A stretch of 64,000 nt of DNA, taken from sequence record PQ631072.1; one strand, written 5' to 3'. The notes below the pieces were generated by a model, which saw only the letters and a program-made list of their open reading frames with translations, had not been told where the DNA came from and searched no databases. The DNA comes from Escherichia phage EC.P2. Below, piece after piece: positions 2,448 through 21,771 of this stretch (the first letter of the stretch is position 1; every line of letters begins with the position of its first letter). A program made the translations under genes and the position numbers.

Positions 2448-2913
2448 TTTAACTACAATCAAGGTGTCTGATCTACCTGTAACAACATCTGTTTCAGACA
2501 CAGATTATTTTGTAACAGATCAATCAGGCATCACTAAGAAAACATCATTACGTGTTCTTCTTGCGGGTGCTGGTGTTACACGAAATCGTCTTTCTGCAAG
2601 GGGTACTGTCACAAATACCCTAGCTTTAGATATTAGCACGGCAGAGTATTTCTCTGCCACTTTATCTAGTCCAACTTGCAGTATTTCATTTAGTAATGTT
2701 CCAGTTACAACTAACATTGTTCAAAACTTTACCCTATCTCTACGTCAAGGTAGTGGAGCAAATAAAGTAACGTGGCCTCAATCTGTTAAATGGAGTTTTG
2801 GTCGCGCTCCTGTTTTGAGTTATAAACAGGGAGCTACAGATATTTTTGAATTTGTTAGTTATGATAATGGAGCTACCTGGATAGGTAGTTTAGTGATGGC
2901 AGGAGTGATTTAA
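2440..2913 (+). CDS. virion structural protein
   Basis: 157 aa ORF overlapping upstream stop by 8 nt and followed by 1-nt overlap with next gene (operon packing). Confidence 0.4.
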   Translation: MADLTTIKVSDLPVTTSVSDTDYFVTDQSGITKKTSLRVLLAGAGVTRNRLSARGTVTNTLALDISTAEYFSATLSSPTCSISFSNVPVTTNIVQNFTLSLRQGSGANKVTWPQSVKWSFGRAPVLSYKQGATDIFEFVSYDNGATWIGSLVMAGVI

Positions 2914-5789
2914 TGTCAAGAATTAAGCACAGAATTGACAATGTTTTCCAACTGATCGATGGACATATTCAGTTCTTAGATCGTAATACAGGTTTAACTG
3001 TAGATCCTACAGTGCAACACTATGTATTAAACCCACAAAACGTTCTAGCTAATAACAGACACTTTATAAACTGGACTGCTCAAGAAGGGCAACCAAACGG
3101 GGATGCTACAACAGAAGGTCAATCCGTGCTTATTCTTGGTTGCGCTTATGCATACCTGGCTTCCGGCGATACAAAGTATTTAGACTCTGCTAAAAAATAT
3201 TGGCAAGCCTATATAGATTACTTCTTTGGTGGTCAGCCTATTCCAGACCCGCCAGCAAAATATCGCCCTAACTGGATTATTAACGGTAAAGAACCACGTC
3301 TTGCACACTATCCTCTTACAGATGATGGCTACCCTACACACGGAGGTTTTAAGGGTAGCTTAATGACGTGGACTAACGGTAGAACAGTTATTCCTCATGG
3401 TGCTCCTCATTGGGGAGAATACCTTGACAAAGCATGGTTTGCTTTTAATGGTAATCTAGGATGGAACTCTGTAAACGCTACAGTATATGCTGTTAATGCA
3501 GATGGAACAACAGATTGGTCTAAGAATGGAGATCAATGGGACGTTGATTGGATCATTGATCGTCTAGGACGTAAAGTTGATTGGGATGGAAATATCTTAG
3601 AAGAAGGTTTTCCAACATCTCAATACGGAACAGTTCAACTAAAAAATACTTCTGTAAACGGTACATATAAATTTAACTACGCGACTTGTAACCCTGTTGA
3701 ACACGGTGGTTATTTAATGGAGCGTAACACTATGTGGCATAACAGACCAGTTAACGTTCCGGTAGAAATGGGCTTTCAGGATAATGCGTCAGATGCTGAA
3801 ACTTGGTGGTGTGATGCTAATTACCTGATGTACCAAATTACAGGAGAAAGAAAATATTGGCTATGCTGGCAGTCTTCACTGTTAGTGTGTCAAGATTACT
3901 CAAACATTGATATGTTTGATAAATTCTTCCGTAAGTCTACATATGCAACTATCCCGTTTACAGATGGCATCTCTTACGATTATTCGTATCCATCTACAGC
4001 AATACCTAAATATTCAAGAGATACTTTAGGTTATATTGTTATTAGACAAGATGTTGCTGCTCAAACAACATTAGAACAGCAAGCCATTTGGTTTAAAGTT
4101 GATCAGAACTCTAAGTTACGAGTTCAGTTTCAAGGTGTAGATGACGCAGGACATGGTATTCTTTTCCGTCCAGAGTTGGAACTAAGTAAGACCAAAGATG
4201 AAAATAACACAGTAACTTACCGCTGTGGCTTACCACTAGGTACAGCTAATATGACAAGCATGGATATTCCACTATCCAGCTTTATGAGAAGTACCCCTCC
4301 AAGTGGTGGAACATATATTATCGCAGATCCGCGAATTATTGTTGACTGGGGTGGCAATACTGTGGTACAATTTAAGTATGTAACAGGTATTGCTGGAACT
4401 AATAATGACCAGATTGTTACTGCATCAATGGATACGGATGGTGGCATTACTGTTGGTTTTTGGTTAACTCCTACATCAAAAGCTAATGTTAAGTCTATTA
4501 CATATAGAACATATGAAGATGACTTTAACATGACTATCACGGATGCTCAAGGTTGGAGATGGTGGGCTATGCTTCCTAAAACGCAAGGGGCATGGAGTAC
4601 GAAGACTTTATCAGCTTCTGATTTTAAGTTAAGTGCTTACCAGCCTAATCATCCAGAAACAGATCCTAAACCTTCAGCAATAAATCTTACTGCGGTAGAT
4701 CAGGTAAATTTAGTTCTCGATACGGCTCCTGTCAATGGTTTAACAGGAACAATAGATTTCTATTGTATTAACGATGTACCTGAAAGATATTCGTCATCTT
4801 CTGGTGATGATTATACCATGTACTTCCGTATCACTGTACAGGCTTCAAGTCCTCATACTGCTAAGTTAGGTGATTGTACTATTATTGACTATAAGTTAAA
4901 TAGTCTTAATTACACACCAGGAATAATTCCATTCTCTAATATCAGTGACCCAAACACTGCATTGTATGATGGCTGGCGTGGTATTCCATACCCAGGATAC
5001 CAATACCCTTCCTTATACTGTTTTGCAGGTAGAGATATTGATTGGACACGTTTAAACAACAGTATTGATTTCTTGTATGATGCTCAAATGTGGTTTTATA
5101 ACACGTTTGATCCTGTGATGCCTGGGCCTATGGCACAAGCATATGTGTGGGATCGTTGGGATGCAAGAAAATACGGTGAACCTAATACGTTTACAATGAA
5201 ACACTGGAATGAAAAAGCGTGGGATGGTTATGAAGCTCGTGCATTCTACTGTGCTTGTCATGCTGTATACGAACTTGTACAAAGAGGAGAAACACCTCCT
5301 GAAAAACTAGTAACTGTTTGTAAAAATTGGATCAACTACCTTAAATGGTTCCAAGACAATAATGATGGAAGAACACCAACTATCTTTAATCCAGATGGTA
5401 CAGTTCTTGCACCTATAGATGACTTTACTAGTCATATGTCTGCACTGTTTATGGCGGGTTGTTCAATCATGGGCTTGGCAGGTTATGATTCACAAATTCC
5501 AAACATTGGTATTGTAGCAGACAGATGTTTTGATCTGATTCAGCAAAACTATATTGTGCTTTCCCCTAACCATCCGATGAATGGTTGCTGGAGTGTTGCA
5601 CCGCGTCCAGATTCAGATAACGGAATGTTCTTTGGTTTCCATGCTGGAGAACTATTACGTGGTTTTGGTTTATATGCCTTGTATCGTAAACTAAACCCTC
5701 AAAACGCTTTACCAATTTTGGATAACAGTAACATACCAACACTAACTGTTCTAACTATGAATGATATTAGTGTTGATGTAACCAAATAA
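2913..5789 (+). CDS. large virion structural protein (baseplate / fibre-associated, possible carbohydrate-active domain)
   Basis: 958 aa ORF in structural module; Trp/Tyr-rich, no catalytic motif confidently identified. Confidence 0.4.
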   Translation: MSRIKHRIDNVFQLIDGHIQFLDRNTGLTVDPTVQHYVLNPQNVLANNRHFINWTAQEGQPNGDATTEGQSVLILGCAYAYLASGDTKYLDSAKKYWQAYIDYFFGGQPIPDPPAKYRPNWIINGKEPRLAHYPLTDDGYPTHGGFKGSLMTWTNGRTVIPHGAPHWGEYLDKAWFAFNGNLGWNSVNATVYAVNADGTTDWSKNGDQWDVDWIIDRLGRKVDWDGNILEEGFPTSQYGTVQLKNTSVNGTYKFNYATCNPVEHGGYLMERNTMWHNRPVNVPVEMGFQDNASDAETWWCDANYLMYQITGERKYWLCWQSSLLVCQDYSNIDMFDKFFRKSTYATIPFTDGISYDYSYPSTAIPKYSRDTLGYIVIRQDVAAQTTLEQQAIWFKVDQNSKLRVQFQGVDDAGHGILFRPELELSKTKDENNTVTYRCGLPLGTANMTSMDIPLSSFMRSTPPSGGTYIIADPRIIVDWGGNTVVQFKYVTGIAGTNNDQIVTASMDTDGGITVGFWLTPTSKANVKSITYRTYEDDFNMTITDAQGWRWWAMLPKTQGAWSTKTLSASDFKLSAYQPNHPETDPKPSAINLTAVDQVNLVLDTAPVNGLTGTIDFYCINDVPERYSSSSGDDYTMYFRITVQASSPHTAKLGDCTIIDYKLNSLNYTPGIIPFSNISDPNTALYDGWRGIPYPGYQYPSLYCFAGRDIDWTRLNNSIDFLYDAQMWFYNTFDPVMPGPMAQAYVWDRWDARKYGEPNTFTMKHWNEKAWDGYEARAFYCACHAVYELVQRGETPPEKLVTVCKNWINYLKWFQDNNDGRTPTIFNPDGTVLAPIDDFTSHMSALFMAGCSIMGLAGYDSQIPNIGIVADRCFDLIQQNYIVLSPNHPMNGCWSVAPRPDSDNGMFFGFHAGELLRGFGLYALYRKLNPQNALPILDNSNIPTLTVLTMNDISVDVTK

Positions 5790-5797
5790 GGAAAATA

Positions 5798-7957
5798 ATG
5801 AAACAGGCTATTTTTACTGTAACTCGAAATACGAGAGTAAATGCCAGTTCATTCAGCTATAAGACCGTCGATGGAACGGCGGTCGCTGGTAGAGATTATG
5901 TAGCTAAACAGGGAACAGTAACGTTCCCTTCTGATGCAGATTCTGCTACTGTAGTGGTTGATGTATATGAACGTCCGGCAAACTCTTTAGATCTTTATTT
6001 TACTCTTGAGATTACTAGCATAAGTCAAAATAACATGATGATCAATGAAGAAATTCGTTGTGTTATTACGACTGATCAATCGAATACAACCCCGCTAACT
6101 TGGCCTGTTGTGAAGTCTAGAATGTTTGATCCTAAGTTTTGGACAATAGATTCTCAAGCAACAGAAAGTTGTTCTATTATCTCTAATGGTGATTCTTTCA
6201 CAGCAAGAATGGTTAATAGGACAGTGGCTGGTCTTGCTGGGATTATTTGGTCAACTTACGATAAATATGATCACAAAGGATTAGGCTACCAAGAACATTC
6301 TGACTTAAGTAAAGAGAAACTTTGGTTTAAAATGGAACTTAGTCAAGGTGTTCCTGGATTAAAAGAAGAAAAATTAATACCATCCTTAACAGTGACACTG
6401 AAGGATGAAACAGTTCATTATGTATCTCTAAACTTTTATGCAGAAGAAGTTTCAGAAGATGGTAAGACAGCAACAATCAAATTAGATTTCTCAAACTTAA
6501 AATCGGGGCCAGAAAATGATATTGTTGTTGACACTACACAAATAGATAATATGTTCTTCTCCTTGATCTCAACGAGGTATCAAGAAATTGAAGATATTAT
6601 TCCTGTAGACAATGAGGATCTTTCCTTTAAGTTTACCATACTGGAGCCTGATACTGGTTACAGTATGATGAATATGGGTAATTTAAATGTTCCAGCACAC
6701 ACCATAAGAATGTGTACATCTTATGATGATATGTATAACCTGACCCCAGAGCGAGTTATTTCTAACACCTACAGATTAGGTTATAGGGATATGATTAACC
6801 ACTATAATGGTATGTCACACTATTATCAGTTTAGTTGGGATGCTGGTTCTAATAAATGGGCTTTGAATAGAACAGAATATTTAAACCCAGCAACAGAAGC
6901 ATGGTTTGATAATTTCCACGCTAATGCAAAAGCTATGGGCTACACAGTAATGAATTCCTTAAGTTTTGAACTTATGAGTACAGTGTGTCCTGTAGAATGG
7001 GTACAACATGCTTGGAATGATGATCTTGCTGCTACAGGTTATGAGCCACCAAGTTATGTTTTATCTCCTTCAATTGATGAAGGGATGAATTATTTACAAG
7101 GTGTAATAAATAAGATAGCTTCTATATCCGCTGCTAATGATCTTCCAGTTATTATTCAGGTTGGTGAACCGTGGTGGTGGTATAACACAGCTACCAATCT
7201 ACCGTGTATTTATGATTATACAACCAAAGTTGCATTTAATAATGAAACTGGATTGTATGCACAAGATGTTGGTACAGTTAAAAATTATAAAACTGGTACA
7301 CCATATGATGAATATTATGCCTTCCTATCTAAAACATTAGGACTGCGTGTTGCTAAATTTGCAACAGATACCAGATTAGCATATCCTGGAGCTAAAGTTA
7401 CATTGTTACCATTTGTGCCATCCATTTTGGGTAATGGTATGATGGAGTTTGTTAACTTCCCTAAAGATTATTATATCCCAGAAAACTTTGACTTTTATTG
7501 TTCAGAATGTTATGATTGGTTGTTGGAAGGTAAGATGGAAAGATCTTTTGACGCTATCACAATACCTAATGAGCAACTAGGTTTTAGTTATGATAAGATA
7601 CATTATCTTGCAGGGTTTGTTCCAGATGCAACTCTAGCACCATTATATGGCTTTGATCCTGAATCAAACTATAGAACATATTTGTGGAAAATGATTATAG
7701 GCAATATTGTATTGAATGACCAGAAGTTTGTTGGTTTATATCAATACATATGGGCTTACCCGCAAATAATGCATGATTCAATAACTGTTCTTAATTCAAA
7801 ATCCCAAGTGTTTTATATGGGTAATGTGCCTTTGAATTGCTACTTGCAAGATATCACTCTTAAACAGGTAAATGTTGAGATTGCCACTATAAGTGGAATT
7901 ACATTAGCCACTAAATCTGGAGAAGATTTAGTAACAACACAAAAATTTTATATATAG
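5798..7957 (+). CDS. virion structural protein with N-terminal Calx-beta-like domain
   Basis: 719 aa; N-terminal segment VAGRDYVAKQGTVTFPSDADSATVVVDV resembles Calx-beta motif. Confidence 0.4.
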   Translation: MKQAIFTVTRNTRVNASSFSYKTVDGTAVAGRDYVAKQGTVTFPSDADSATVVVDVYERPANSLDLYFTLEITSISQNNMMINEEIRCVITTDQSNTTPLTWPVVKSRMFDPKFWTIDSQATESCSIISNGDSFTARMVNRTVAGLAGIIWSTYDKYDHKGLGYQEHSDLSKEKLWFKMELSQGVPGLKEEKLIPSLTVTLKDETVHYVSLNFYAEEVSEDGKTATIKLDFSNLKSGPENDIVVDTTQIDNMFFSLISTRYQEIEDIIPVDNEDLSFKFTILEPDTGYSMMNMGNLNVPAHTIRMCTSYDDMYNLTPERVISNTYRLGYRDMINHYNGMSHYYQFSWDAGSNKWALNRTEYLNPATEAWFDNFHANAKAMGYTVMNSLSFELMSTVCPVEWVQHAWNDDLAATGYEPPSYVLSPSIDEGMNYLQGVINKIASISAANDLPVIIQVGEPWWWYNTATNLPCIYDYTTKVAFNNETGLYAQDVGTVKNYKTGTPYDEYYAFLSKTLGLRVAKFATDTRLAYPGAKVTLLPFVPSILGNGMMEFVNFPKDYYIPENFDFYCSECYDWLLEGKMERSFDAITIPNEQLGFSYDKIHYLAGFVPDATLAPLYGFDPESNYRTYLWKMIIGNIVLNDQKFVGLYQYIWAYPQIMHDSITVLNSKSQVFYMGNVPLNCYLQDITLKQVNVEIATISGITLATKSGEDLVTTQKFYI

Positions 7958-7965
7958 GAGTAAAA

Positions 7966-10131
7966 ATGTCAACTACAATTACTAATTTACCCGAAACATC
8001 AAAAGTTAATGGTTCAGATTACCTGGTTTTAGATCAACCTGATAAAACTGTTAAAAGCACAGTTTCCAACTTTCTTACTGACACTGGGGTGGTTTTAGCC
8101 ACCCAGTTGAAAGATACAGATGGAGCAGATTTAATACAATCCTCAAATGGTAATACTGTTCAGGAAGAGTTGAATAACAATCTTCTTAATGATCGTGAAC
8201 AGTGGCGTCGTAGTCTTGCTGAGGCAGGGTTAACCCTTGTCAACGGTAGCTTTGAAGAAGGGGCTACAGTAAACAATAAGACGGATGCTGTTTGGCATAT
8301 TGCTGGTGGGCAGTGCTATACGTGGGATGGCGAGTTCCCTAAAACTGTTCCTGCCGGATCAACCCCAGGAACATCTGGTGGTATTGGTACTGGAGCGTGG
8401 TTGAGTGTTGGTGATGCAACATTAAGAACAGAATTGTTATCTGTTAATGGTGCTGTAATTCAATCTTTTAACAGTGTTTCAGACATGAAATCTTACAATA
8501 TAACAGCAGGAAGAACATATCATACAAAAGGATATTGGGCAGAAGGTGATGGTGGTGGTGCTCTATATTATGTCACAACTCCGTCAGGAGACGAACCAAA
8601 TGGTTATAGCGATCACAAGTCTGAAAATGGTTTATACATTCGTTTGTTGTCAGAACCTACTGATTTGAATCATGGGGTTAAGATTAGCGATATTTATGAC
8701 CCTGAAACGGCAAGGTGGAATCGAAACGCGATCCAAACTATGTTGCGTGATACCCGCTGGAGCTATACCGAATGTAAAGCACAAGGCGTAATTTATCTTT
8801 TGGGTAGTGTAAATGTAGGTAGAGATAATATCACATTCAAAATCAACAAAGGGTGCTCGCTTAAAGGTAGGTATTCAGATCCTAGTATTTCAACCCCAGA
8901 TCAAGGTGGACACATGATAGGATTCGCTAAATTTTTCGACCCGGATAATGGTGATTTTATACCATGGAGAGATGGTGATACACGTATTAACCCTTATATA
9001 GAAAATGTACATGTTATTTTAGAAGGTGACGTATCTACTGAATTTAACGACAGCCATATAAACAAATATAACAATAACTGTATAGGGTTCCTGAAGGCTA
9101 AAAATTGCAGTATTCGTGGTACAGGTGGTTCATCATCCAGCGACCATCGAGCTTTTAACTTTGACGGCATAGACACTAATGCCCCCAATGGCTCTGAAAA
9201 CAGAGGTGGTAGCATTAATTGTCATATTGATGTTGGTTATTCTTACAATTGTGTAGACAACCCTTGCATGATTGCTGCTGACCAATTCACCGCAAGTAGT
9301 TGCAGCATTAAAATCGGCGATGTGCGTAAAATGGTAGCAGGTGGTTATAACAGTCCGATTGTTATAAATGTATCCGGCATCTCGCATTTCGATATTAATA
9401 TAGGTAGATTTTTGGTTGATGGTGGTGTCACACCAGCGTTAGTTGTAGCTCGTGGCGCTCGTTCAGTTAACGTAACAGGTGGTGTTATACAGGGCTGTAC
9501 AATGGGTGTGTATTCTGTAGATACCCTGGATATTTCTTTAAACATTAAGGAAATGTTTAATGTACCAATAGGTGTTGCTGTTGCAAATAACAGCACTATC
9601 GGCCCGAGAAGTATTATTATTCGTGGAATTAACGCAGTTAACTCCAGCTTTTCCGCTGCTTATGCGCATCAAGCATCTGCATTACCAGCAGCATATGTCG
9701 AAATAGCTGATAATAACTTCAGTGCCGCTTCTAGTTCATTTAAGTTTATTGGTGGTAAAACTTCAGGAAACACTCCTAAAAGACAAAACATTCATGACAA
9801 TGTTACATCTTCTACGGGAGATGGTGGTCAAGATCTCAACTATTTGCCAGGCACTCAGAAAAACATTATAGGAGGTAGTTCAACTACTAGTCTCAGTGTC
9901 AACTTTAAAGATGGCAACTGGAATTTCACAAAAGCGACCGTAGTTGCTGGGCAAGGTGGTGGGCGTGGTATTGCCACCATTGATCTACTTGCTAAAGGCG
10001 TTTCCAGCAACAGCATGGTTATAAGGGCTGGTGCTTATGATGTCACTGTAGCTATGCCTGCCAATGGAAATACGCTGACAGTTAGCGTAGTGTCGCCAAA
10101 CTTCATTGATTATGTGACGCTTCATAATTAG
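7966..10131 (+). CDS. tail fibre / tailspike protein
   Basis: 721 aa; N-terminus typical of phage fibre anchors (TNLPETSKVNGSDYLVLDQPDKTVKSTVSNF); Gly/Asn-rich beta-helix-like body. Confidence 0.5.
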   Translation: MSTTITNLPETSKVNGSDYLVLDQPDKTVKSTVSNFLTDTGVVLATQLKDTDGADLIQSSNGNTVQEELNNNLLNDREQWRRSLAEAGLTLVNGSFEEGATVNNKTDAVWHIAGGQCYTWDGEFPKTVPAGSTPGTSGGIGTGAWLSVGDATLRTELLSVNGAVIQSFNSVSDMKSYNITAGRTYHTKGYWAEGDGGGALYYVTTPSGDEPNGYSDHKSENGLYIRLLSEPTDLNHGVKISDIYDPETARWNRNAIQTMLRDTRWSYTECKAQGVIYLLGSVNVGRDNITFKINKGCSLKGRYSDPSISTPDQGGHMIGFAKFFDPDNGDFIPWRDGDTRINPYIENVHVILEGDVSTEFNDSHINKYNNNCIGFLKAKNCSIRGTGGSSSSDHRAFNFDGIDTNAPNGSENRGGSINCHIDVGYSYNCVDNPCMIAADQFTASSCSIKIGDVRKMVAGGYNSPIVINVSGISHFDINIGRFLVDGGVTPALVVARGARSVNVTGGVIQGCTMGVYSVDTLDISLNIKEMFNVPIGVAVANNSTIGPRSIIIRGINAVNSSFSAAYAHQASALPAAYVEIADNNFSAASSSFKFIGGKTSGNTPKRQNIHDNVTSSTGDGGQDLNYLPGTQKNIIGGSSTTSLSVNFKDGNWNFTKATVVAGQGGGRGIATIDLLAKGVSSNSMVIRAGAYDVTVAMPANGNTLTVSVVSPNFIDYVTLHN

Positions 10132-14145: not shown

Positions 14146-14487
14146 ATGGAGCTAACAGAAGTATGGGATATCGCTAAAGAGGCGATTATCCCTCTTATTG
14201 GTGTAATCTGGGTGGTCTTCAAACAGAAGATAGATGATATAGCAAGTGATTTGGATAAAATGGAAGACAAATACCGTGAACTAGAAAAGAAGTTGGTGTT
14301 TGTTGAATCCACTTATGCTACCAAAGCAGAACTTGCTCAAATGCTTAACCAGATCAACTCTACATTAATGGCAAATAATACTGCCTTAGAACAGAAAATT
14401 GAAAAAATAATGGATTTAAAAAATGCTCCTGTTCAATTAATGCTAGAGGAGATTACGAAGCGCACACAAAGTAAGGACAAAAATTAA
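14146..14487 (+). CDS. coiled-coil protein
   Basis: 113 aa, N-terminal hydrophobic helix then Glu/Lys-rich coiled coil; 1-nt overlap with next gene. Confidence 0.4.
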   Translation: MELTEVWDIAKEAIIPLIGVIWVVFKQKIDDIASDLDKMEDKYRELEKKLVFVESTYATKAELAQMLNQINSTLMANNTALEQKIEKIMDLKNAPVQLMLEEITKRTQSKDKN

Positions 14488-16901
14488 TGGCGAATTTTCC
14501 AACATATCCTGCTACGACACTAGAACAAGGTGTTGATCTGGTTATATTCTCGTCTAACCAGATGCATGATGTTATTAACGGGGATGCTACAGCAACTGTA
14601 GAAACCGAAACAGGTTTAATACCTACACTGCGTAAAGCACTTGTTGATAACTTCTTCTTTAAGAGTCCTGTTGCTTGGTCAGCAGGATCAACTGAAACTG
14701 TATTTAACCAGTTACGTTATTTTGAAAACGGCATCTTGAGTGGGTACTACTATGCCCCATCTGCCACTACTGCGAACCCTGTACCTATGCAGGGTACACC
14801 TGTAGGAGACAGTAACTGGACTCTGTATGCTCTTAAAACTGAACAGTTAGCTTCAGATGTGTATCCTTGGTATTTTAAAGGTGCTACAGGGTATGAGACA
14901 GAAATCAGTCCTCCTTATATCTTTGATAATGCTATTGTCACCATTAACGGTGTAATTCAGATTCAGGGTGAAGCATTTACTATCAAAGATAGTAAAATTA
15001 TTCTGGCAGAACCATTAGGTTTAGATCCGTCTACTGGTCTACCTAACAAATTGTTTGCTTTTATTGGTAAAACAACAGCCTCTACTTCTTACGTAGAGAA
15101 AAACCTTTTGTCATCTACCACTGGTGCAGCAATGGTTGGTCTTCCATCTGGAGGCAACCTGTTACAAGCTCAATACTTTGTAACGCCTGAGCAGTTTGGT
15201 GCAATTGGTGATGGAGTTACCGATGATACTCAAGCAATTCTAAAAACCATTACTTTCGCTAACACGAATAACATTCAAGTACGTGCAGATAAGAATTATA
15301 GATTCACAAGCTCAATTGCTATGTCTGGTATTCGTTGGTATGGTGGTACATTCACTGGTAACGGTGGAACAATGATTTCTACTGTGTCCTGTTGGATTGA
15401 AAACGTTCGCTTTGAAAAATGTTATGTTAAGATGTTAGGTGGTGATTGCCGATTCTATCGTAATATCTTCTCCAACGCAACATCTACAGCAGCATTCTTA
15501 ATGCAAGCAATGACAAGTGAAGGTACGTTGGACTTCAGTTACAACGAAATGTATGGTTGTAAATATGCGATCCTGCAACAAGGTACTGGAGAAGTAATGA
15601 CCTATGGGCGTTACTCTAACAACTATATTCACGATATTAAAGGTGATGCTATTGAACTTAACGTAGTTCAAAGACACTACACTGAAGGTTTGATCATCGA
15701 GAATAACCACATTGCTAACGTAGATGCTTCTGGACAAGGTGCAAACTGGGGTATTGGTATTGGTGTAGCAGGTAGTGGCCCATATGGTGTTGATGCTCCT
15801 GATTCACAATATGTACGTAACTTCAGTATCGTTGGAAATAGAGTTTACAATTGCCGTCAATGTCTACACGTTGAAATGGGTAAAAACTTCACAATACGTG
15901 ATAACGAAGTTTATCCTAACACAGCAGTTTCAACAGGTACAGGTTTAACTACTTGTGGTGTTGCATTATACGGATGCCAAGACTTTGAAGTTGATGGTTT
16001 AACTGGTTATCTGCTTAATGATCCGTCTGTTTCAACACGCATGGTCTTTATTGACTGGGGTGTTAACGGTGGAAGATATGCGGGGCCACCAATTAACTTT
16101 ACAATTAAGAATTTGGATATTCCAGAATCTTCGATTGAGATTGCAACGGCTGGATCAGACGCCTGGGAAAACTCTACAATTGTTAGTAACATCAATTGTA
16201 ATGATTTTAAATGGCGTGGGCTACCATCTAGCTCTACTTTTAATAATATTCGTTGCCGTAGTATTGACTTTATTGGTCAACACGGAAGCGGAGAAGGAAG
16301 TGGTGGCGGTTTCTATACTCGCAGCCAATTCACTTATATGAAGTGGGTAGGATGTACAGCACTTAGCGGAGATGAAACAACAGTTTCTTTTGCTAAAATC
16401 TACACGGATCGTTGCGATCAGGTTGGAAATAACTTTGGTGTTCCAACTGCTGTTGATGGTACAGGTCATCGTGGGCCAGTCTTAACCACTATTTCTGAAC
16501 AATATTTTACAGATTATGATGAATTCCCAGGTGGGCGTGACTTCCCTACTGGAACAGTTATTCATTGTGCAAGCGGTAAAAAACACGTTGTTACAGTAGG
16601 TGGTGCTTTCTTTAGTAATAATGAGAAAATAAAAGCAACTGTTACAGGTCAAACCTATCTACAGTCTAATGCTTTAAACTGGGCTAGTAATGGCTACGCT
16701 AAAGCGGCAGGTACTAAGATTGTTATTCCAGGTGCAGGAGCAAATGGTGGCGATCTTGTGACAACTATAGCACGTGCTACGTATGTGACAAATAGTTTGT
16801 ACACAATAGATATTGCAGATCCAATTGTAACACCTACAGCAGAGAATACACAAATTAAAGCTCTGAACCCTGTTACTTTTGTTACTGTCAATAATGCTTA
16901 A
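14487..16901 (+). CDS. tailspike with pectate-lyase-fold (right-handed beta-helix) depolymerase domain
   Basis: 804 aa; signature PEQFGAIGDGVTDDTQAILKTI (pectate_lyase_3 / tailspike glycanase motif). Confidence 0.65.
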   Translation: MANFPTYPATTLEQGVDLVIFSSNQMHDVINGDATATVETETGLIPTLRKALVDNFFFKSPVAWSAGSTETVFNQLRYFENGILSGYYYAPSATTANPVPMQGTPVGDSNWTLYALKTEQLASDVYPWYFKGATGYETEISPPYIFDNAIVTINGVIQIQGEAFTIKDSKIILAEPLGLDPSTGLPNKLFAFIGKTTASTSYVEKNLLSSTTGAAMVGLPSGGNLLQAQYFVTPEQFGAIGDGVTDDTQAILKTITFANTNNIQVRADKNYRFTSSIAMSGIRWYGGTFTGNGGTMISTVSCWIENVRFEKCYVKMLGGDCRFYRNIFSNATSTAAFLMQAMTSEGTLDFSYNEMYGCKYAILQQGTGEVMTYGRYSNNYIHDIKGDAIELNVVQRHYTEGLIIENNHIANVDASGQGANWGIGIGVAGSGPYGVDAPDSQYVRNFSIVGNRVYNCRQCLHVEMGKNFTIRDNEVYPNTAVSTGTGLTTCGVALYGCQDFEVDGLTGYLLNDPSVSTRMVFIDWGVNGGRYAGPPINFTIKNLDIPESSIEIATAGSDAWENSTIVSNINCNDFKWRGLPSSSTFNNIRCRSIDFIGQHGSGEGSGGGFYTRSQFTYMKWVGCTALSGDETTVSFAKIYTDRCDQVGNNFGVPTAVDGTGHRGPVLTTISEQYFTDYDEFPGGRDFPTGTVIHCASGKKHVVTVGGAFFSNNEKIKATVTGQTYLQSNALNWASNGYAKAAGTKIVIPGAGANGGDLVTTIARATYVTNSLYTIDIADPIVTPTAENTQIKALNPVTFVTVNNA

Positions 16902-16903
16902 TT

Positions 16904-16926
16904 AAAAGGGGCGAAAGCCCCTTTAT
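16904..16926 (+). terminator. rho-independent terminator
   Basis: GGGGCGAAAGCCCC hairpin followed by TTTAT. Confidence 0.55.
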
Positions 16927-16941
16927 AAAAGGAGTAGTAAA

Positions 16942-18912
16942 GTGATTTTAACACGTCCAAATAGTGCCATTGCAGACATGGTAGAGTCTCGCTATAGAAA
17001 GCGTAGAAGTTTTGCAAGTGGTTTTACCTTAAGAGATGCTCGTGAAGCATTGCTCTTTGAAGCTGACGGTAACTACTATCAGTGGAAAGGTTCTCTACCT
17101 AAAGTTGTACCTGCTAACTCTACTCCTACATCCACTGGAGGGATTTCAGATACAGCTTGGAAAAATGTGGGTAATGCAGATGACATTGCTCAAATAGAAT
17201 CAGAATTAGATGCTATTGAAGCTGAAATTGAAGATCTTAGAGAATCCATCCCAGAAGCTGGTAAATCAGCTTACCAGATTGCCGTAGACAATGGTTTCCA
17301 AGGTACTGAGACACAGTGGTTGGCTTCTTTAAAAGGTGATCCAGGCGCTCCATTAAAGCTATTAGGGACACTATCTAATACCAACCAATTACCTACAAGT
17401 GGAAACAATGCAGGGGATGCATGGATTGTAGGCGAGAATATGTATGCTTGGGATGGTACTGCTTGGAGAAAAGTAAACTCACAGGGGCCAGAAGGTAAGT
17501 CTGCTTATGAAGTATGGCTTGCAGCAGGAAACCAAGGTACAGAACTAGACTATCTTGCTTCAATTAAAGGTGATAAAGGGGAGCCTGGCCCAGAGGGGCC
17601 ACAAGGTGTGCCAGGTAACAATGCTAATGGTTTTGATTACCAAGGCGCAGCTAATTCCGTTTCAGATCTTCCTTCTGCATCTCATGGAAACACATCTCAA
17701 GCATGGAGTGTTGGTACATATCTATACGTGTCAAACGGTGTAGAATGGATCAATATGGGCGCTATAGTGGGGCCAAAAGGAGATAAAGGCGACAAAGGAG
17801 ATAAGGGTAACACTGGTGATTCAGCTTATCAAGTCTGGTTAAATGCTGGTAACGTTGGTACTATTGACGAATATATTGCCTCTCTGAAAGGAGAAAAAGG
17901 TGATAAGGGAGACAAGGGTGATCAAGGTGCACAGGGTATACAAGGCTTGACGGGGCCAACTGGTGCAGGGTTGACCATTATTGACATTCTGACTAGCACT
18001 TCTGAACTGCCACAAACTGGGGAAGATGGTGATGGTTATCTGATCAATAGTGAACTTTGGGTCTGGTTGCAAGGAGCCACAGAGTGGACAAATGTTGGTC
18101 GTTTAGCTGGTACTCCAATCACTGCAAAAGGACACGTTGCGTCTGCAAGTGCGCTTCCTCCTACAGCCAATTACGGTGATGCTTATCTGACGGAAGATAC
18201 AGGTCATCTTTACATTTACACCTATAATGAACAAACTCAAACTGCTGAATATGTAGATATGGGTAGTTTGAAAGGTGATAAGGGTGAAAAAGGTGAGAAA
18301 GGTGACGCTGGTACTAACGGTACAGACGGTGCAACTTGGATTGTTAAAACAACAGATCCAATCTCTAGTGATGGTAAACAAGGTGATTATGCCTTTAATA
18401 TCTCCACTGGCGAGGTGTTCTTAAAAACATCTGCAACTGTCTGGACTTCTCAAGGTACACTACCTAGTATCACAGATGCACCTAGTGATGGTAAGACTTA
18501 TGCTCGTAAAGATGGGGCATGGGAAGAACTCACTAATTCTGTAGATGGTCAAGATATAGTTCCAACAAAAGTAACAACTAATTTTATAGAGGTTACAGCA
18601 TATACCAACAATTCTGTTACAGGGGACTGGACACCTCCAGGAACACATAACATGAATGTGTTGAATCTTACTGGTAACGCTACTATAAAAGCATGGCCTG
18701 GTGTCGAAGATAGTACAAAACCTAAACCATTCTCTGCAATAGTTTATCTTATCCAAGATGCCACTGGAGGTCGTACTGTTACTTTAGATCCATCTTACAA
18801 AGTAATTGGTTCCAGTGATATTAATACAGATCCTAACGGAGTAACAATACTACAACTAACATATTGTGGTGTTGGCGATTACGTGGATGCTATTGTTGCT
18901 AAACGCACATAA
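16942..18912 (+). CDS. tail fibre with collagen-like Gly-X-Y runs and phage-fibre repeats
   Basis: 656 aa, GTG start with AAAGGAG upstream; GDKGEPGPEGPQGVPG, GPKGDKGDKGDKGNTGD, GEKGDKGDKGDQGAQGIQGLTGPTGAG, GDKGEKGEKGDAGTNGTDG; three copies of SAYQ-W-AGN-GT-DYLASLKG units. Confidence 0.65.
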   Translation: MILTRPNSAIADMVESRYRKRRSFASGFTLRDAREALLFEADGNYYQWKGSLPKVVPANSTPTSTGGISDTAWKNVGNADDIAQIESELDAIEAEIEDLRESIPEAGKSAYQIAVDNGFQGTETQWLASLKGDPGAPLKLLGTLSNTNQLPTSGNNAGDAWIVGENMYAWDGTAWRKVNSQGPEGKSAYEVWLAAGNQGTELDYLASIKGDKGEPGPEGPQGVPGNNANGFDYQGAANSVSDLPSASHGNTSQAWSVGTYLYVSNGVEWINMGAIVGPKGDKGDKGDKGNTGDSAYQVWLNAGNVGTIDEYIASLKGEKGDKGDKGDQGAQGIQGLTGPTGAGLTIIDILTSTSELPQTGEDGDGYLINSELWVWLQGATEWTNVGRLAGTPITAKGHVASASALPPTANYGDAYLTEDTGHLYIYTYNEQTQTAEYVDMGSLKGDKGEKGEKGDAGTNGTDGATWIVKTTDPISSDGKQGDYAFNISTGEVFLKTSATVWTSQGTLPSITDAPSDGKTYARKDGAWEELTNSVDGQDIVPTKVTTNFIEVTAYTNNSVTGDWTPPGTHNMNVLNLTGNATIKAWPGVEDSTKPKPFSAIVYLIQDATGGRTVTLDPSYKVIGSSDINTDPNGVTILQLTYCGVGDYVDAIVAKRT

Positions 18913-18914
18913 TC

Positions 18915-18940
18915 AAAGCCCCTTCGGGGGCTTATTATTT
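18915..18940 (+). terminator. rho-independent terminator
   Basis: AGCCCCTTCGGGGGCT hairpin then TATTATTT. Confidence 0.55.
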
Positions 18941-18951
18941 AAGGAGATTAA

Positions 18952-21771
18952 ATGTATCCTATTCCTTTATTTATGTCAACAACATCAGCTTCAGTAGTAA
19001 CAGCTACATCTATAACCACTTCCTCTATTGGTATTGCAATAGTTGGTAGTAAAAAGCAACTGACATACACAGTTTCACCGGAAGATGGTGCGTTATTTGA
19101 TATAGCTTTTTCATCTTCAGATAATACCAAAATGGTTATAGATAATAACGGTATGATGGAGTTTGTTGCTGAAGGCGGTTTTGATGCAATAATGACAGCT
19201 AAAAATAATTTAGGTGCTGTCTTAACTGATCAATCTGGTGGCTATGCTTCAGAATTAAGTGTGTACACTGAAAGTCTGTCTGCTATGGATGCAGGAACTA
19301 CTCAACAATTGGTTGCTACAATCAGTCCAGAAGGTGCTAAAGACCTTCCAGACATGGTAATTACGTACACCACAACAGATCCAGAAGTAGCTACTGTAAG
19401 CCCTACAGGATTAATAACTGCTCTTAAAGATGGCAGTTGCCGTATAGGTTGTACTGCAACTTATCAAGGAACAGTGGTGGCCTCTGATAGTTCTTATTTA
19501 GGTGTTAATGCTATTCCTGTTATTTCTAATGTAACAGCCGTGGCAAACAGCTATGGAGACATTCGTGTTGCTTGGGATGTAGCTGATCCGCTAGATGGTG
19601 ATACTTATACTGTAGAAGTATTAGATTTAAGTAATAACAGTGTCCAGTGGACTACAACAACCACGAATACTTACGCCTACTTTGATATCTCTGACTCTAT
19701 TCCTCTTTATGGGTTTGCTCCAACATACCTTAAAATTAGCGTTAAGAGCACCAAAGCAGCAGCCGTTATCTTTAATAACTCAATAGCTACAGATGATTCA
19801 TTCATTAAAGAAGTTATTGTCTTTGCTGGACAAGATAACGTAAATGCACACTTTACAGAACTATCTGGTGCAAATAAAGCAGCAATGAGTAGCACAACAA
19901 CCCGTAACGCATATGCTACGCAACGTGGTTTAGCAAATGCTGAAGTTCTTCCGTTAAATACAGCTTCTGGATCATCAGCAGCAGATAAATATGCTGACGA
20001 TAAAGCTGGAACAGGTACACCAGACAACTACTGGTATGATCTGGATAACACAGCAGATGGGCCATGCTTAACTAATTTTATCACTAAAGTCACACCTTAT
20101 GCAAGTAAGGTTAAAGCAATTATTTGGGGACAAGGTGAAAATGATGCTGTATCAGCATCTTCAACTGTTGCAGGTAGGTACAGTAACACTACACGTTACC
20201 ATGATGCTACGATAGCCATCTTTGATAAGATGCGTACAATAGTTCCTGCTTCTCAAGCAAAAATTGTTTGGCAGATCCTAGGACGTTCTTATCTATATGG
20301 TGTAGAAGTTAATGGTGTAGATTGGCAGAAATACAGAAATGTACAAAGAACCATCTCTACAGCACGTGACGATGTTATCATTGGTTCTTGGGTAGATGGT
20401 GCTGAACGTTACAGTGGCTATGCTTATGAAGAAGGTATTGATGGTCGTATCCATTATATTTCTTCTGTATACCAGACAGCAGCTACAAAACTTGCTAAAT
20501 CAGCAGCAGACGGTACAGACCTAACATCAACGTCACCTGTTTGGGTTGATATGGCTGTTCCAACTGGAGCAACAGCTACTTCCCAGTCTAATCAAGATAC
20601 AATTTTAGCATGGGATGCTCAAGGTTATAGTAAACACTACTTCCGTAATATTAACGTCTTAACAGCATCTGTATTAACTGAACAAACGCTTAATACGAAC
20701 AGTTATACGTTTACCTATGCAGATCAAGTAGAACAATATGGTTTTGCAGCAGGTACTACGATATTTGATGTTGCATATTATGACGAAGCAAATGATGTGT
20801 TATCTCCTTTAGTACGTTTTAATGTTAGCGTTACAGCAGGAAAAGTAGAAGATAAACCTGTCGTGATGGACTATGATTTGACACAAGAAACTCTTCCATC
20901 AGATGTTAAGGTTAATGGTGGGAACTCTTTTGCTCGTGCTTCTGGAGATACACTTGTAGCCACTAACACCTTGGTTGCTCCGTTGGAGTATGTTGGCACT
21001 ACCCCTGTAGGTAGACGTGTAACAGCTAACACAGCTACACAAATTTTTGTCAACAACGCCTTAACAAGCGCAAGCCCGTGGGTAAAGACCAACTTAACTG
21101 TTGCATCTTCATCTGATAAATCTCCGGCTGGAACTACTGCTAATGTATTCAAATTAACTCCGACTACAACTTCTGGTAGTCATATCTTAACTGCAACATA
21201 TACTAACGCGTACAACATATCTGCCGGACGTAACTGGTCTGCCTCTGTTTTCTTGAAAGCGAACGGGATTACTAAGGCCAAACTAAGATTAAAAGCAGGG
21301 ACTGAAGTTAATGAAGGTACTTTTGATTTAGCAGCAGGTACATTCACAGGAAGTGAAGCTAATATTATATCTATGGGCAACGGTTGGTATCGTGCTATTC
21401 TGCATAAAACAGGAATAGCCAAACAGTCCTCCATAAGTTTTGAAATAATTGCCTTGGATGCAACTGGTGCGGAGATTTTCGCTGGAGATGGTACTAGTAA
21501 CCTTGCAGTTTGGTTGCCACAGCTTGAAGGTGCTTCTACAGGAGAAACATCAAAAGCTGGATCGCCTTATGTCTGCACATATCCTGGAAATTTAGGAGGA
21601 GTATCCTTCACTATACCAAGGAACGGACATACTGGTGTGGATGTTTACTATTCCAACGGAGACGTTGTTCGTGACGTATTCTCTGGTACGGCATCTACTT
21701 GGACAATAAACTACTCCAGCTTGTACGATTGGGGATCAGTCTTTATTACAGGTTTGAAATATTACGACTAA
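18952..21771 (+). CDS. tail fibre / receptor-binding protein with Big_2-like and SASA (sialate O-acetylesterase)-like domains
   Basis: 939 aa; Big_2-like segment (ATVSPTGLITALKDGSCRIGCTATYQG); esterase-like motifs VIVFAGQDN and AIIWGQGENDA (GQSN / QGExD pattern). Confidence 0.5.
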   Translation: MYPIPLFMSTTSASVVTATSITTSSIGIAIVGSKKQLTYTVSPEDGALFDIAFSSSDNTKMVIDNNGMMEFVAEGGFDAIMTAKNNLGAVLTDQSGGYASELSVYTESLSAMDAGTTQQLVATISPEGAKDLPDMVITYTTTDPEVATVSPTGLITALKDGSCRIGCTATYQGTVVASDSSYLGVNAIPVISNVTAVANSYGDIRVAWDVADPLDGDTYTVEVLDLSNNSVQWTTTTTNTYAYFDISDSIPLYGFAPTYLKISVKSTKAAAVIFNNSIATDDSFIKEVIVFAGQDNVNAHFTELSGANKAAMSSTTTRNAYATQRGLANAEVLPLNTASGSSAADKYADDKAGTGTPDNYWYDLDNTADGPCLTNFITKVTPYASKVKAIIWGQGENDAVSASSTVAGRYSNTTRYHDATIAIFDKMRTIVPASQAKIVWQILGRSYLYGVEVNGVDWQKYRNVQRTISTARDDVIIGSWVDGAERYSGYAYEEGIDGRIHYISSVYQTAATKLAKSAADGTDLTSTSPVWVDMAVPTGATATSQSNQDTILAWDAQGYSKHYFRNINVLTASVLTEQTLNTNSYTFTYADQVEQYGFAAGTTIFDVAYYDEANDVLSPLVRFNVSVTAGKVEDKPVVMDYDLTQETLPSDVKVNGGNSFARASGDTLVATNTLVAPLEYVGTTPVGRRVTANTATQIFVNNALTSASPWVKTNLTVASSSDKSPAGTTANVFKLTPTTTSGSHILTATYTNAYNISAGRNWSASVFLKANGITKAKLRLKAGTEVNEGTFDLAAGTFTGSEANIISMGNGWYRAILHKTGIAKQSSISFEIIALDATGAEIFAGDGTSNLAVWLPQLEGASTGETSKAGSPYVCTYPGNLGGVSFTIPRNGHTGVDVYYSNGDVVRDVFSGTASTWTINYSSLYDWGSVFITGLKYYD

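Follow-up and report, generated by a model that had tools for sequence, protein, structure and literature searches.

The subject of this report is an open reading frame (ORF) in a window of 64,000 nucleotides from Escherichia phage EC.P2 (record PQ631072.1). The ORF fills positions 16942–18912 of the plus strand exactly (1971 nucleotides) and encodes a 656-residue protein with repeated Gly-X-Y runs. Judged by sequence, this protein is the ortholog of gp151, the collagen-like fibre of phi92-like Escherichia coli myophages (genus Justusliebigvirus). We consider it likely that the protein forms a trimeric, segmented and flexible collagen-like side fibre of the phi92 gp151 type on a Justusliebigvirus myophage. 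The assignment as a fibre is based on a full-length match to PHROG 15437, on the identity and gene order shared with gp151, on an N-terminal Tail_spike_N domain, and on the fold of the tip domain. A preliminary description of this stretch had named the product a tail fibre. These four observations support the fibre; its position on the tail, as opposed to elsewhere in the virion, is something that we infer.

Public records already contain the gene, annotate it as a fibre and note its collagen-like character. Modular phage fibres are a very large and known class, of which the protein is an ordinary representative. Examples with collagen-like sequence have been recognised since the late 1990s. 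Their biochemical characterization dates from 2012 (PMC3368898). A literature search returned no paper that discusses the collagen feature in Justusliebigvirus or Phapecoctavirus. The present analysis adds a module map, a foldon-like hairpin, a register-preserving length polymorphism and a model of the tip domain. These additions are incremental: their practical value is modest, and the general understanding of phage fibres is unchanged. The whole-triplet polymorphism and the natural pairing of collagen with a foldon-like module may nevertheless interest engineers of collagen mimetics or phage receptor-binding proteins.

Orthologs and Gene Order

The reading frame stays open over 656 codons, and its product is matched from residue 1 to residue 656 by PHROG 15437 ("tail fiber protein", 1374 bits), the full-length similarity that is expected of the phi92 gp151 group. 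Amino acid identity to phi92 gp151 itself (YP_009012483.1) is 97.6%. Orthologs from Phapecoctavirus are 57–61% identical at the amino acid level and share the order of modules. The 1971-nucleotide stretch and Escherichia phage vB_EcoM_PHB05 show 99.5% identity. In the phage collection, 55 records contain DNA of the fibre gene at 97–99.5% identity, phi92 gene 151 among them. The closest protein comes from phage SD2 (99.5%); the exact 656-residue sequence was not found in a collection of 15 billion proteins. Public annotations of the orthologs read "tail fiber protein", "collagen-like protein" or, in the BASEL phages, "lateral tail fiber protein with type I collagen domain". The name "TfpM2" is also in use (PMC12695924).

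The gene order is likewise that of phi92. Upstream of the fibre gene lie genes for a tail fibre assembly protein, a small lipoprotein and a colanidase (colanic-acid-degrading) tailspike, and downstream lies the gene for a large tail protein with Ig domains. A gene-order comparison shows that these neighbours are conserved in phi92 and Mt1B1_P17. With the colanidase tailspike on one side and the downstream tail protein on the other, the gene has the position that marks the phi92 gp151 group, and it shares neighbours and module order with its Justusliebigvirus and Phapecoctavirus orthologs. The start codon of the fibre gene is GTG, preceded by a ribosome-binding site (RBS) AGGAG at 16930–16934; the start context in phi92 is identical.

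The fibre gene is also found, at 98.4% identity, in four records of about 146 kb that are labelled "Campylobacter phage" (MG065639, MG065645, MG065656 and MG065689; host given as C. jejuni). These records resemble phi92-like coliphages whose host is doubtfully labelled.

Putative Anchor and Neck, Tip and Foldon-Like Hairpin

The preliminary description dealt with the repeats. Four elements that are absent from it can be added, namely a tailspike-type domain at the N-terminus, an Ile/Leu heptad helix, a foldon-like hairpin and a C-terminal beta-sandwich. All coordinates given here and below refer to the plus strand of the window.

The putative virion anchor comprises residues 1–78 (16942–17175), which hold a conserved N-terminal peptide (LTRPNSAIADMVE..YRKRRSF) and a Tail_spike_N domain. 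The family model PF18668 matches residues 11–77 with an E-value of 4.3e-21 and 75.2 bits against a cut-off of 25, which makes the domain a member of this family. Sequence matches in the PDB include CBA120 TSP1, TSP3 and TSP4 and the G7C tailspike (4qnl), among others. Foldseek returns the same proteins for the predicted domain, which has a predicted local distance difference test score (pLDDT) of 76–84. Both the sequence and the fold of Tail_spike_N are thus shared with the CBA120 and G7C tailspikes and with Shigella phage B2 gp48. These tailspikes go on to an enzymatic beta-helix, whereas the window protein has the domain at its extreme N-terminus and continues into a collagen-like shaft that lacks an enzyme domain. 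Over 57 residues, the domain is 46% identical to the Tail_spike_N of a variable tailspike encoded in the same locus (ORF 7966–10131).

Residues 79–105 (17176–17256) are predicted to form an alpha-helix and may serve as a trimeric coiled-coil neck. AlphaFold2 places the helix at residues 79–102, and Ile and Leu follow each other in strict 3/4 spacing (I82, I85, L89, I92, I96, L99, I103). The phi92 record also notes a predicted coiled-coil central domain. The full-length monomer model has a pLDDT of 61 and a predicted template modelling score of 0.25 and was used for local secondary structure alone; its Foldseek matches essentially reflect the N-terminal domain.

The tip domain at the other end of the protein (residues 534–656; 18541–18912 with the stop codon) is predicted with a pLDDT of 94.5 as a seven-strand beta-sandwich, and precomputed annotation assigns it to PF26209. 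In BFVD, hundreds of tail-fibre proteins have this fold as their last domain, some of them under the name "phage tail fibre C-terminal domain". The domain is common to rV5-type fibres as well. Alternatively, the protein may be a structural adaptor, with a C-terminal beta-sandwich that docks another fibre or spike instead of binding a receptor. We regard this idea as improbable, given how many tail-fibre proteins in BFVD end in this fold. A further point against it is that the Pfam and PHROG matches of the downstream gene product (939 residues) include no Tail_spike_N or other named tailspike N-terminal domain.

A word-indexed homology search with the C-terminal 150 residues gave 8 matches, and an exhaustive HMMER search gave matches that are dominated by foldon-like hairpin repeats. 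PHROG 4549 ("tail fiber protein", 869 positions) matches the N-terminal residues 9–116 of the colanidase tailspike (ORF 14487–16901) and the C-terminal residues 529–656 of the fibre. This double match shows that domains have been exchanged between the adjacent receptor-binding genes and a family of tail fibres in which one protein has both.

The foldon-like beta-hairpin (ITDAPSDGKTYARKDGAWEELT; F in the module map) occupies residues 508–533 (18463–18540), directly ahead of the tip. Its PDB matches are T4 fibritin foldon chains and foldon fusions, and the best match is the JBD30 fibre (8rk3, E = 2.4e-4). AlphaFold2 predicts the two strands of the hairpin at residues 520–523 and 526–529, with low pLDDT in the monomer. 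The hairpin shares 12 of 22 positions with the foldon of T4 fibritin (wac), including Ala-Pro, Asp-Gly, Tyr, Arg-Lys-Asp-Gly, Trp and Leu, and it therefore combines the characteristic residues of a foldon with a predicted beta-hairpin. In 14 sequences, residues A513, P514, D516, Y520, R522 and W527 do not vary. A heptad helix is a second feature in common with T4 fibritin. Tandem arrays of this hairpin occur, with up to 10 copies in homologues of the fibre and up to 13 in many other proteins. Since relatives contain such arrays, F appears to act as a stackable repeat and not as a unique terminal foldon.

The Collagen-Like Shaft

The preliminary description had placed at least four Gly-X-Y runs at about 17571–17618, 17768–17820, 17887–17967 and 18274–18330. 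We find four uninterrupted runs, with limits that differ from these positions by at most 3 nucleotides. Run 1 (GDKGEPGPEGPQGVPG; residues 210–225, 17569–17616) contains six Gly residues, as it does in all of 13 orthologs. Run 2 (GPKGDKGDKGDKGNTG; residues 277–292, 17770–17817) also contains six. Run 3 (GEKGDKGDKGDQGAQGIQGLTGPTG; residues 317–341, 17890–17964) is the longest with nine, and run 4 (GDKGEKGEKGDAGTNGTDG; residues 445–463, 18274–18330) holds seven and is the most variable in length among the orthologs. The best match to the Pfam Collagen family (PF01391) coincides with run 3 and is above threshold (34.9 bits against a cut-off of 27.2 at residues 317–341). Such runs are not expected from composition. 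In 20,000 shuffles of the fibre protein, any run of at least five triplets appeared in 1.7% of cases, with a mean of 0.017 runs per shuffle compared to the four observed. The triplets are rich in charge and poor in proline: the X position is Asp or Glu in 14 of 28 triplets, the Y position is Lys in 11 of 28, Pro occupies 6 of the 56 X and Y positions, and 10 K-G-D/E motifs occur in the runs.

The runs alternate with two kinds of small modules. A is a 27-residue two-helix unit (the "SAY" unit), and B is a unit of about 45 residues with four strands. With Gly-X-Y runs denoted col and followed by their number of Gly residues, the shaft reads A-B-A-col6-B-col6-A-col9-B-B-col7-B, and the foldon-like hairpin and the C-terminal beta-sandwich follow. 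The models for A, B and F were seeded from one copy, trained exclusively on distant homologues and controlled with shuffled sequences. They recover three A units (41–61 bits), four B units (36–57 bits) and one F (29.1 bits) in the window protein. Shuffled controls score at most 6.4 bits with the A model and at most 7.2 bits with any model.

A1 (KSAYQIAVDNGFQGTETQWLASLKGDP; residues 108–134, 17263–17343) scores 61.1 bits, has helices at residues 110–116 and 123–130 and is followed by two Gly-X-Y triplets (GDPGAP). A2 (residues 186–212, 17497–17568; 42.7 bits) has helices at 188–194 and 201–209, and A3 (residues 293–319, 17818–17889; 41.2 bits) at 295–301 and 308–315. These are the three copies of a SAYQ-W-AGN-GT-DYLASLKG unit that had been recognised before, and all three are real. 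The B units comprise B1 (LKLLGTLSNTNQLPTSGNNAGDAWIVGENMYAWDGTAWRKV...; residues 138–183, 17353–17493; 57.5 bits; four strands with pLDDT of about 77–83), B2 (residues 234–278, 17632–17769; 42.2 bits; four strands), B3 (residues 344–390, 17971–18111; 45.4 bits) and B4 (residues 393–445, 18118–18273; 36.1 bits; four strands). B1, B2 and B3 correspond to the three Trp-containing beta units of the preliminary description, which had listed neither B4 nor a divergent fifth unit. This B5 (residues 466–507, 18337–18462), located ahead of the foldon-like hairpin, reaches 19.9 bits when it is part of the seed and is missed by the model that was trained without it. Since this non-circular test did not recover B5, we report the unit as divergent and weak. 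AlphaFold2 gives it four strands like the other B units. In 12 of the 13 orthologs, and in most distant homologues with a foldon-like hairpin, the module ahead of this hairpin is of the B type.

In the AlphaFold2 monomer, each A unit consists of two short helices and each B unit of four strands, with pLDDT of about 70–83. The A units and several B units lead directly into the Gly register (...LKG-DKG..., ...IVG-PKG...). Pairwise identities are 44–63% among A units and 14–33% among B units; the latter nonetheless clearly form a single family. Neither A nor B belongs to a named family in Pfam or NCBIfam. Scans of the fibre against these databases returned Tail_spike_N, Collagen and a sub-threshold Fibritin_C only. 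The A1-B1-A2 segment has no sequence match in the PDB, even at E-values up to 10.

An assembly of repeats such as this one could in principle be a product of recent tandem duplication, low complexity or a wrong reading frame, with no structural meaning. The Gly-X-Y runs do contain short arrays with a 9-nucleotide period, and one such unit differs between close relatives. Everything else speaks so strongly against this explanation that we regard it as refuted. A frame of 656 codons is open, and its product retains 57–61% identity and the module order in Phapecoctavirus. The large units are only 14–63% identical to each other and lack long direct repeats in the DNA, and the Gly-X-Y runs lie far above the shuffle expectation and keep their register across orthologs. 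The collagen segments are 61–71% identical to one another at the DNA level. The earlier statement that the nucleotide repeats are diverged is therefore correct. The accompanying view of a modular architecture in place of recent tandem duplication holds for the large units, which are diverged and have been reshuffled in 120 homologues, but not for single triplets, where recent slippage-type change has occurred.

Length Variation in Whole Triplets

The preliminary description had proposed a comparison of repeat copy number among related phages. Of 13 orthologs from the phi92/phAPEC8 group (Stephanstirmvirinae), 12 share the order A-B-A-col-B-col-A-col-B-B-col-B-F-tip; the remaining ortholog, P0014, lacks the last B unit only. 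What varies is mainly the number of triplets, in addition to indels of 1–5 residues in B3, B4, F and the tip. Among the 13 orthologs, run 1 always contains 6 Gly residues, and runs 2, 3 and 4 contain 5–11, 8–10 and 4–13, respectively. Run 4 of P0010 falls below the four-triplet threshold of this count, with 9 residues between the flanks.

The length of each span was also measured between conserved flanks in 15–16 sequences. Runs 2, 3 and 4 show 6, 3 and 9 distinct values, and each set is constant modulo 3. The span of run 2 ranges from 14 to 32 residues and always leaves a remainder of 2 on division by 3; that of run 4 ranges from 9 to 39 residues and is always a multiple of 3. Length changes in runs 2, 3 and 4 thus preserve the register as collagen would demand, and run 1 is invariant. 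Gap blocks in a MAFFT alignment had suggested collagen-run indels that are not multiples of 3; the measurement between conserved flanks identified these as an alignment artefact. The closest comparison shows a single step. Relative to phi92 and alia, the window gene carries an extra 9 nucleotides (AAAGGTGAG) in run 4 between identical flanks. This extra unit adds one GEK triplet and accounts for the 656 residues of the window protein compared to 653 in phi92 gp151. Both alleles are present in public data.

Proposed Architecture of the Fibre

How may such a protein work? By analogy with other collagen-like fibres, three chains would associate into a parallel homotrimer. The first 22 residues, which are conserved, and the Tail_spike_N domain may dock the fibre onto a branched receptor-binding apparatus at the baseplate; that the variable tailspike of the same locus has a Tail_spike_N domain too is in keeping with such docking. 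The triple helices of 16–25 residues would be too short and too poor in proline to be stable on their own. Bacterial collagens draw their stability from electrostatics of the K-G-D/E type and from an adjacent trimerisation domain. The short helices of the window fibre could likewise be salt-bridged through their K-G-D/E motifs, with the Ile/Leu coiled coil, the A and B nodes and the foldon-like hairpin acting as clamps for trimerisation and register. Collagen triple helices have a width of about 1.5 nm and a rise of 0.286 nm per residue. The outcome would be a thin, segmented and flexible fibre in which short triple helices are held between small trimeric nodes. Slippage by 9 nucleotides would shift the length of the shaft by one triplet (about 0.86 nm) at a time and leave the register intact.

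The distal beta-sandwich would bind a putative, probably conserved receptor on the host surface and mediate reversible adsorption. On K-12 hosts, phi92-like phages seem to make use of conserved glycans, namely enterobacterial common antigen (ECA, PMC8594841) and the NGR glycan (PMC11984140). Neither study links a receptor to the fibre gene.

Placement in the Virion

Several observations weigh against the reading of this protein as a trimeric, collagen-like side fibre. In a 2026 study of phi92 that used cryo-electron microscopy (cryo-EM), gp151 is one of four candidate fibre proteins and its function is listed as uncharacterised; its AlphaFold3 model fitted the density of fibre II poorly, and the protein was not assigned to fibres I or III (PMC13450770). 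The literature lists gp151 only as a potential or putative fibre. The Gly-X-Y runs have a pLDDT below 50 and are left unmodelled in the monomer AlphaFold2 prediction. Fibritin_C (PF07921) matches residues 505–532 with an E-value of 1.3e-3 and 19.3 bits, which is below the gathering cut-off of 21. In T4 fibritin, the foldon is C-terminal and forms a terminal knot, whereas the window hairpin is internal and followed by a 123-residue domain. Finally, length change in whole triplets could reflect the mechanism of 9-nucleotide slippage alone rather than selection on register.

A part of this evidence could suggest a different location. Rather than a side fibre of the baseplate, the protein may be a fibre of the head, the neck or the whisker type, comparable to T4 fibritin or a capsid spike. 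A coiled coil together with a foldon-like hairpin makes up two hallmarks of T4 fibritin, the phi92 record labels the N-terminal domain a "potential capsid binding domain", and there is a resemblance to the Pa223 capsid spike. Serratia phage Kashira encodes a related protein with A, B, collagen and F modules near its major capsid gene, one small gene downstream. The misfit of gp151 to fibre II and its missing assignment to the two other baseplate fibres would also be accommodated. We nevertheless judge this placement to be unlikely. In phi92, in Phapecoctavirus and in the window, the gene sits in the tail-fibre cluster right after the colanidase tailspike. The N-terminal domain is of the tailspike type and common to the variable tailspike of the locus and to the CBA120 and G7C tailspikes, whereas Kashira-type proteins have another N-terminus that lacks Tail_spike_N. 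The term "Head fiber" is absent from the text of the 2026 phi92 paper (PMC13450770).

If the protein is a baseplate side fibre, its architecture offers a plausible reason why gp151 matches no fibre density. The cryo-EM paper calls fibre II "short, thick, and rigid" (PMC13450770). From a thin, jointed collagen fibre, we would expect a mismatch to this density and loss of signal on averaging. The residue-level module map concerns a protein that the newest phi92 structure paper lists as uncharacterised. A bolder proposal, which we put forward as a speculation with rather low odds of being right, is that gp151-type fibres constitute a fourth set of side fibres, thin and jointed, that symmetry-averaged cryo-EM would miss. 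Slippage by 9 nucleotides in runs 2 and 4 would tune their reach in steps of 0.86 nm and match the conserved tip to surface layers of different thickness, and A, B and F would represent a general, undescribed vocabulary of clamps for very short, proline-poor triple helices. If this is true, the span of run 4 (9–39 residues) would correspond to about 2.6–11 nm.

Comparison with Other Collagen-Like Proteins

The closest experimental precedent for such an architecture is provided by EPclA–D, side tail fibres of the lambda Stf type from E. coli prophages, which have been shown to be trimeric and triple-helical (PMC3368898, Ghosh et al. 2012). Among them, too, differences in collagen length are multiples of three (PMC3368898). 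Like the window fibre, these proteins combine a coiled coil with Gly-X-Y domains that are broken by non-collagen repeats; EPcl proteins have one or two such domains and a C-terminal trimerisation domain. The families PfN (PF08400), Pf2 (PF03406) and PfC (PF06820) gave no match in the window fibre at E-values up to 0.1 in a Pfam scan, which sets the protein apart from the EPcl type. Its collagen segments are more numerous and much shorter (16–25 residues compared to 63–322), its interrupting modules are A and B units, and its anchor is Tail_spike_N.

The streptococcal proteins Scl1 and Scl2 and Legionella Lcl contain proline-poor and charge-rich triplets as the window fibre does, and the likeness is limited to these triplets. 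The NCBIfam models for Scl and Lcl score 48, 40.8 and 31.3 bits against cut-offs of 400, 325 and 500, which places the fibre outside these families. It also lacks an LPXTG anchor and a signal peptide.

Beyond the orthologs, a large group of distant homologues (more than 1200 matches at E-values up to 1e-10) is built from A, B, collagen and F pieces. These proteins comprise 800–1150 residues, with maxima of 20 for A units, 12 for B units, 10 for foldon-like hairpins and 170 for triplets. Most of them terminate as "...col-B-F(n)-tip", and across 120 homologues the A, B and F modules have been recombined and reshuffled. In proteins that have no B units (homologues P0090, P0028, P0077 and P0081), Gly-X-Y runs are likewise found in alternation with the "SAY" unit. 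One of these B-less proteins (898 residues) is encoded on a bacterial contig of 5.26 Mb, and its N-terminus resembles a signal peptide by eye. Another homologue with "SAY" units contains about 20 of them in tandem. From these sequences, the "SAY" unit appears to be a general partner of collagen segments in bacteria and phages.

Neighbouring Genes and Flanking Hairpins

Proteins of the gp141/gp142 type, candidate scaffolds of the baseplate or the tail fibres, are encoded at 2913–5789 and 5798–7957. The variable tailspike of the locus is a 721-residue ORF (7966–10131, plus strand) in the place that the endosialidase gp143 takes in phi92, with its Tail_spike_N domain at residues 92–150. In a megablast search of 50,697 phage records, only the first 450–490 nucleotides or so of this ORF found matches, and no record covered 80% or more of it. 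The distal 570 residues or so look like a tailspike allele that is absent from this collection. Since this part is without a match there, the window phage is not simply PHB05.

Downstream of the fibre gene, a single ORF (18952–21771, plus strand) encodes the 939-residue protein with Big_2 Ig-like domains and a weak match to a SASA esterase-like domain. Its counterpart is one long gene in phage alia (939 residues) and in Mt1B1_P17 (890 residues). The matching region of phi92 (L001 14002–15664) is annotated as two short genes, gp152 (203 residues) and gp153 (296 residues). Justusliebigviruses are said to be without the "TfpM1" gene (PMC12695924); given the 939-residue ORF at 18952–21771, this statement does not hold for the window.

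The fibre gene is flanked on both sides by GC-rich hairpins. The first (GGGGC-GAAA-GCCCC with an A/T extension, 16905–16924) lies between the stop codon of the colanidase gene and the fibre gene and is identical in phi92. The second (AAGCCCCTTCGGGGGCTT, that is AAGCCCC-TTCG-GGGGCTT, 18916–18933) follows the stop codon of the fibre gene and resembles a terminator. Each hairpin is located within a short intergenic gap shortly before the next RBS. By their sequence and position, the two elements could stabilise or attenuate transcripts, or they could mark the boundaries of a recombination module.

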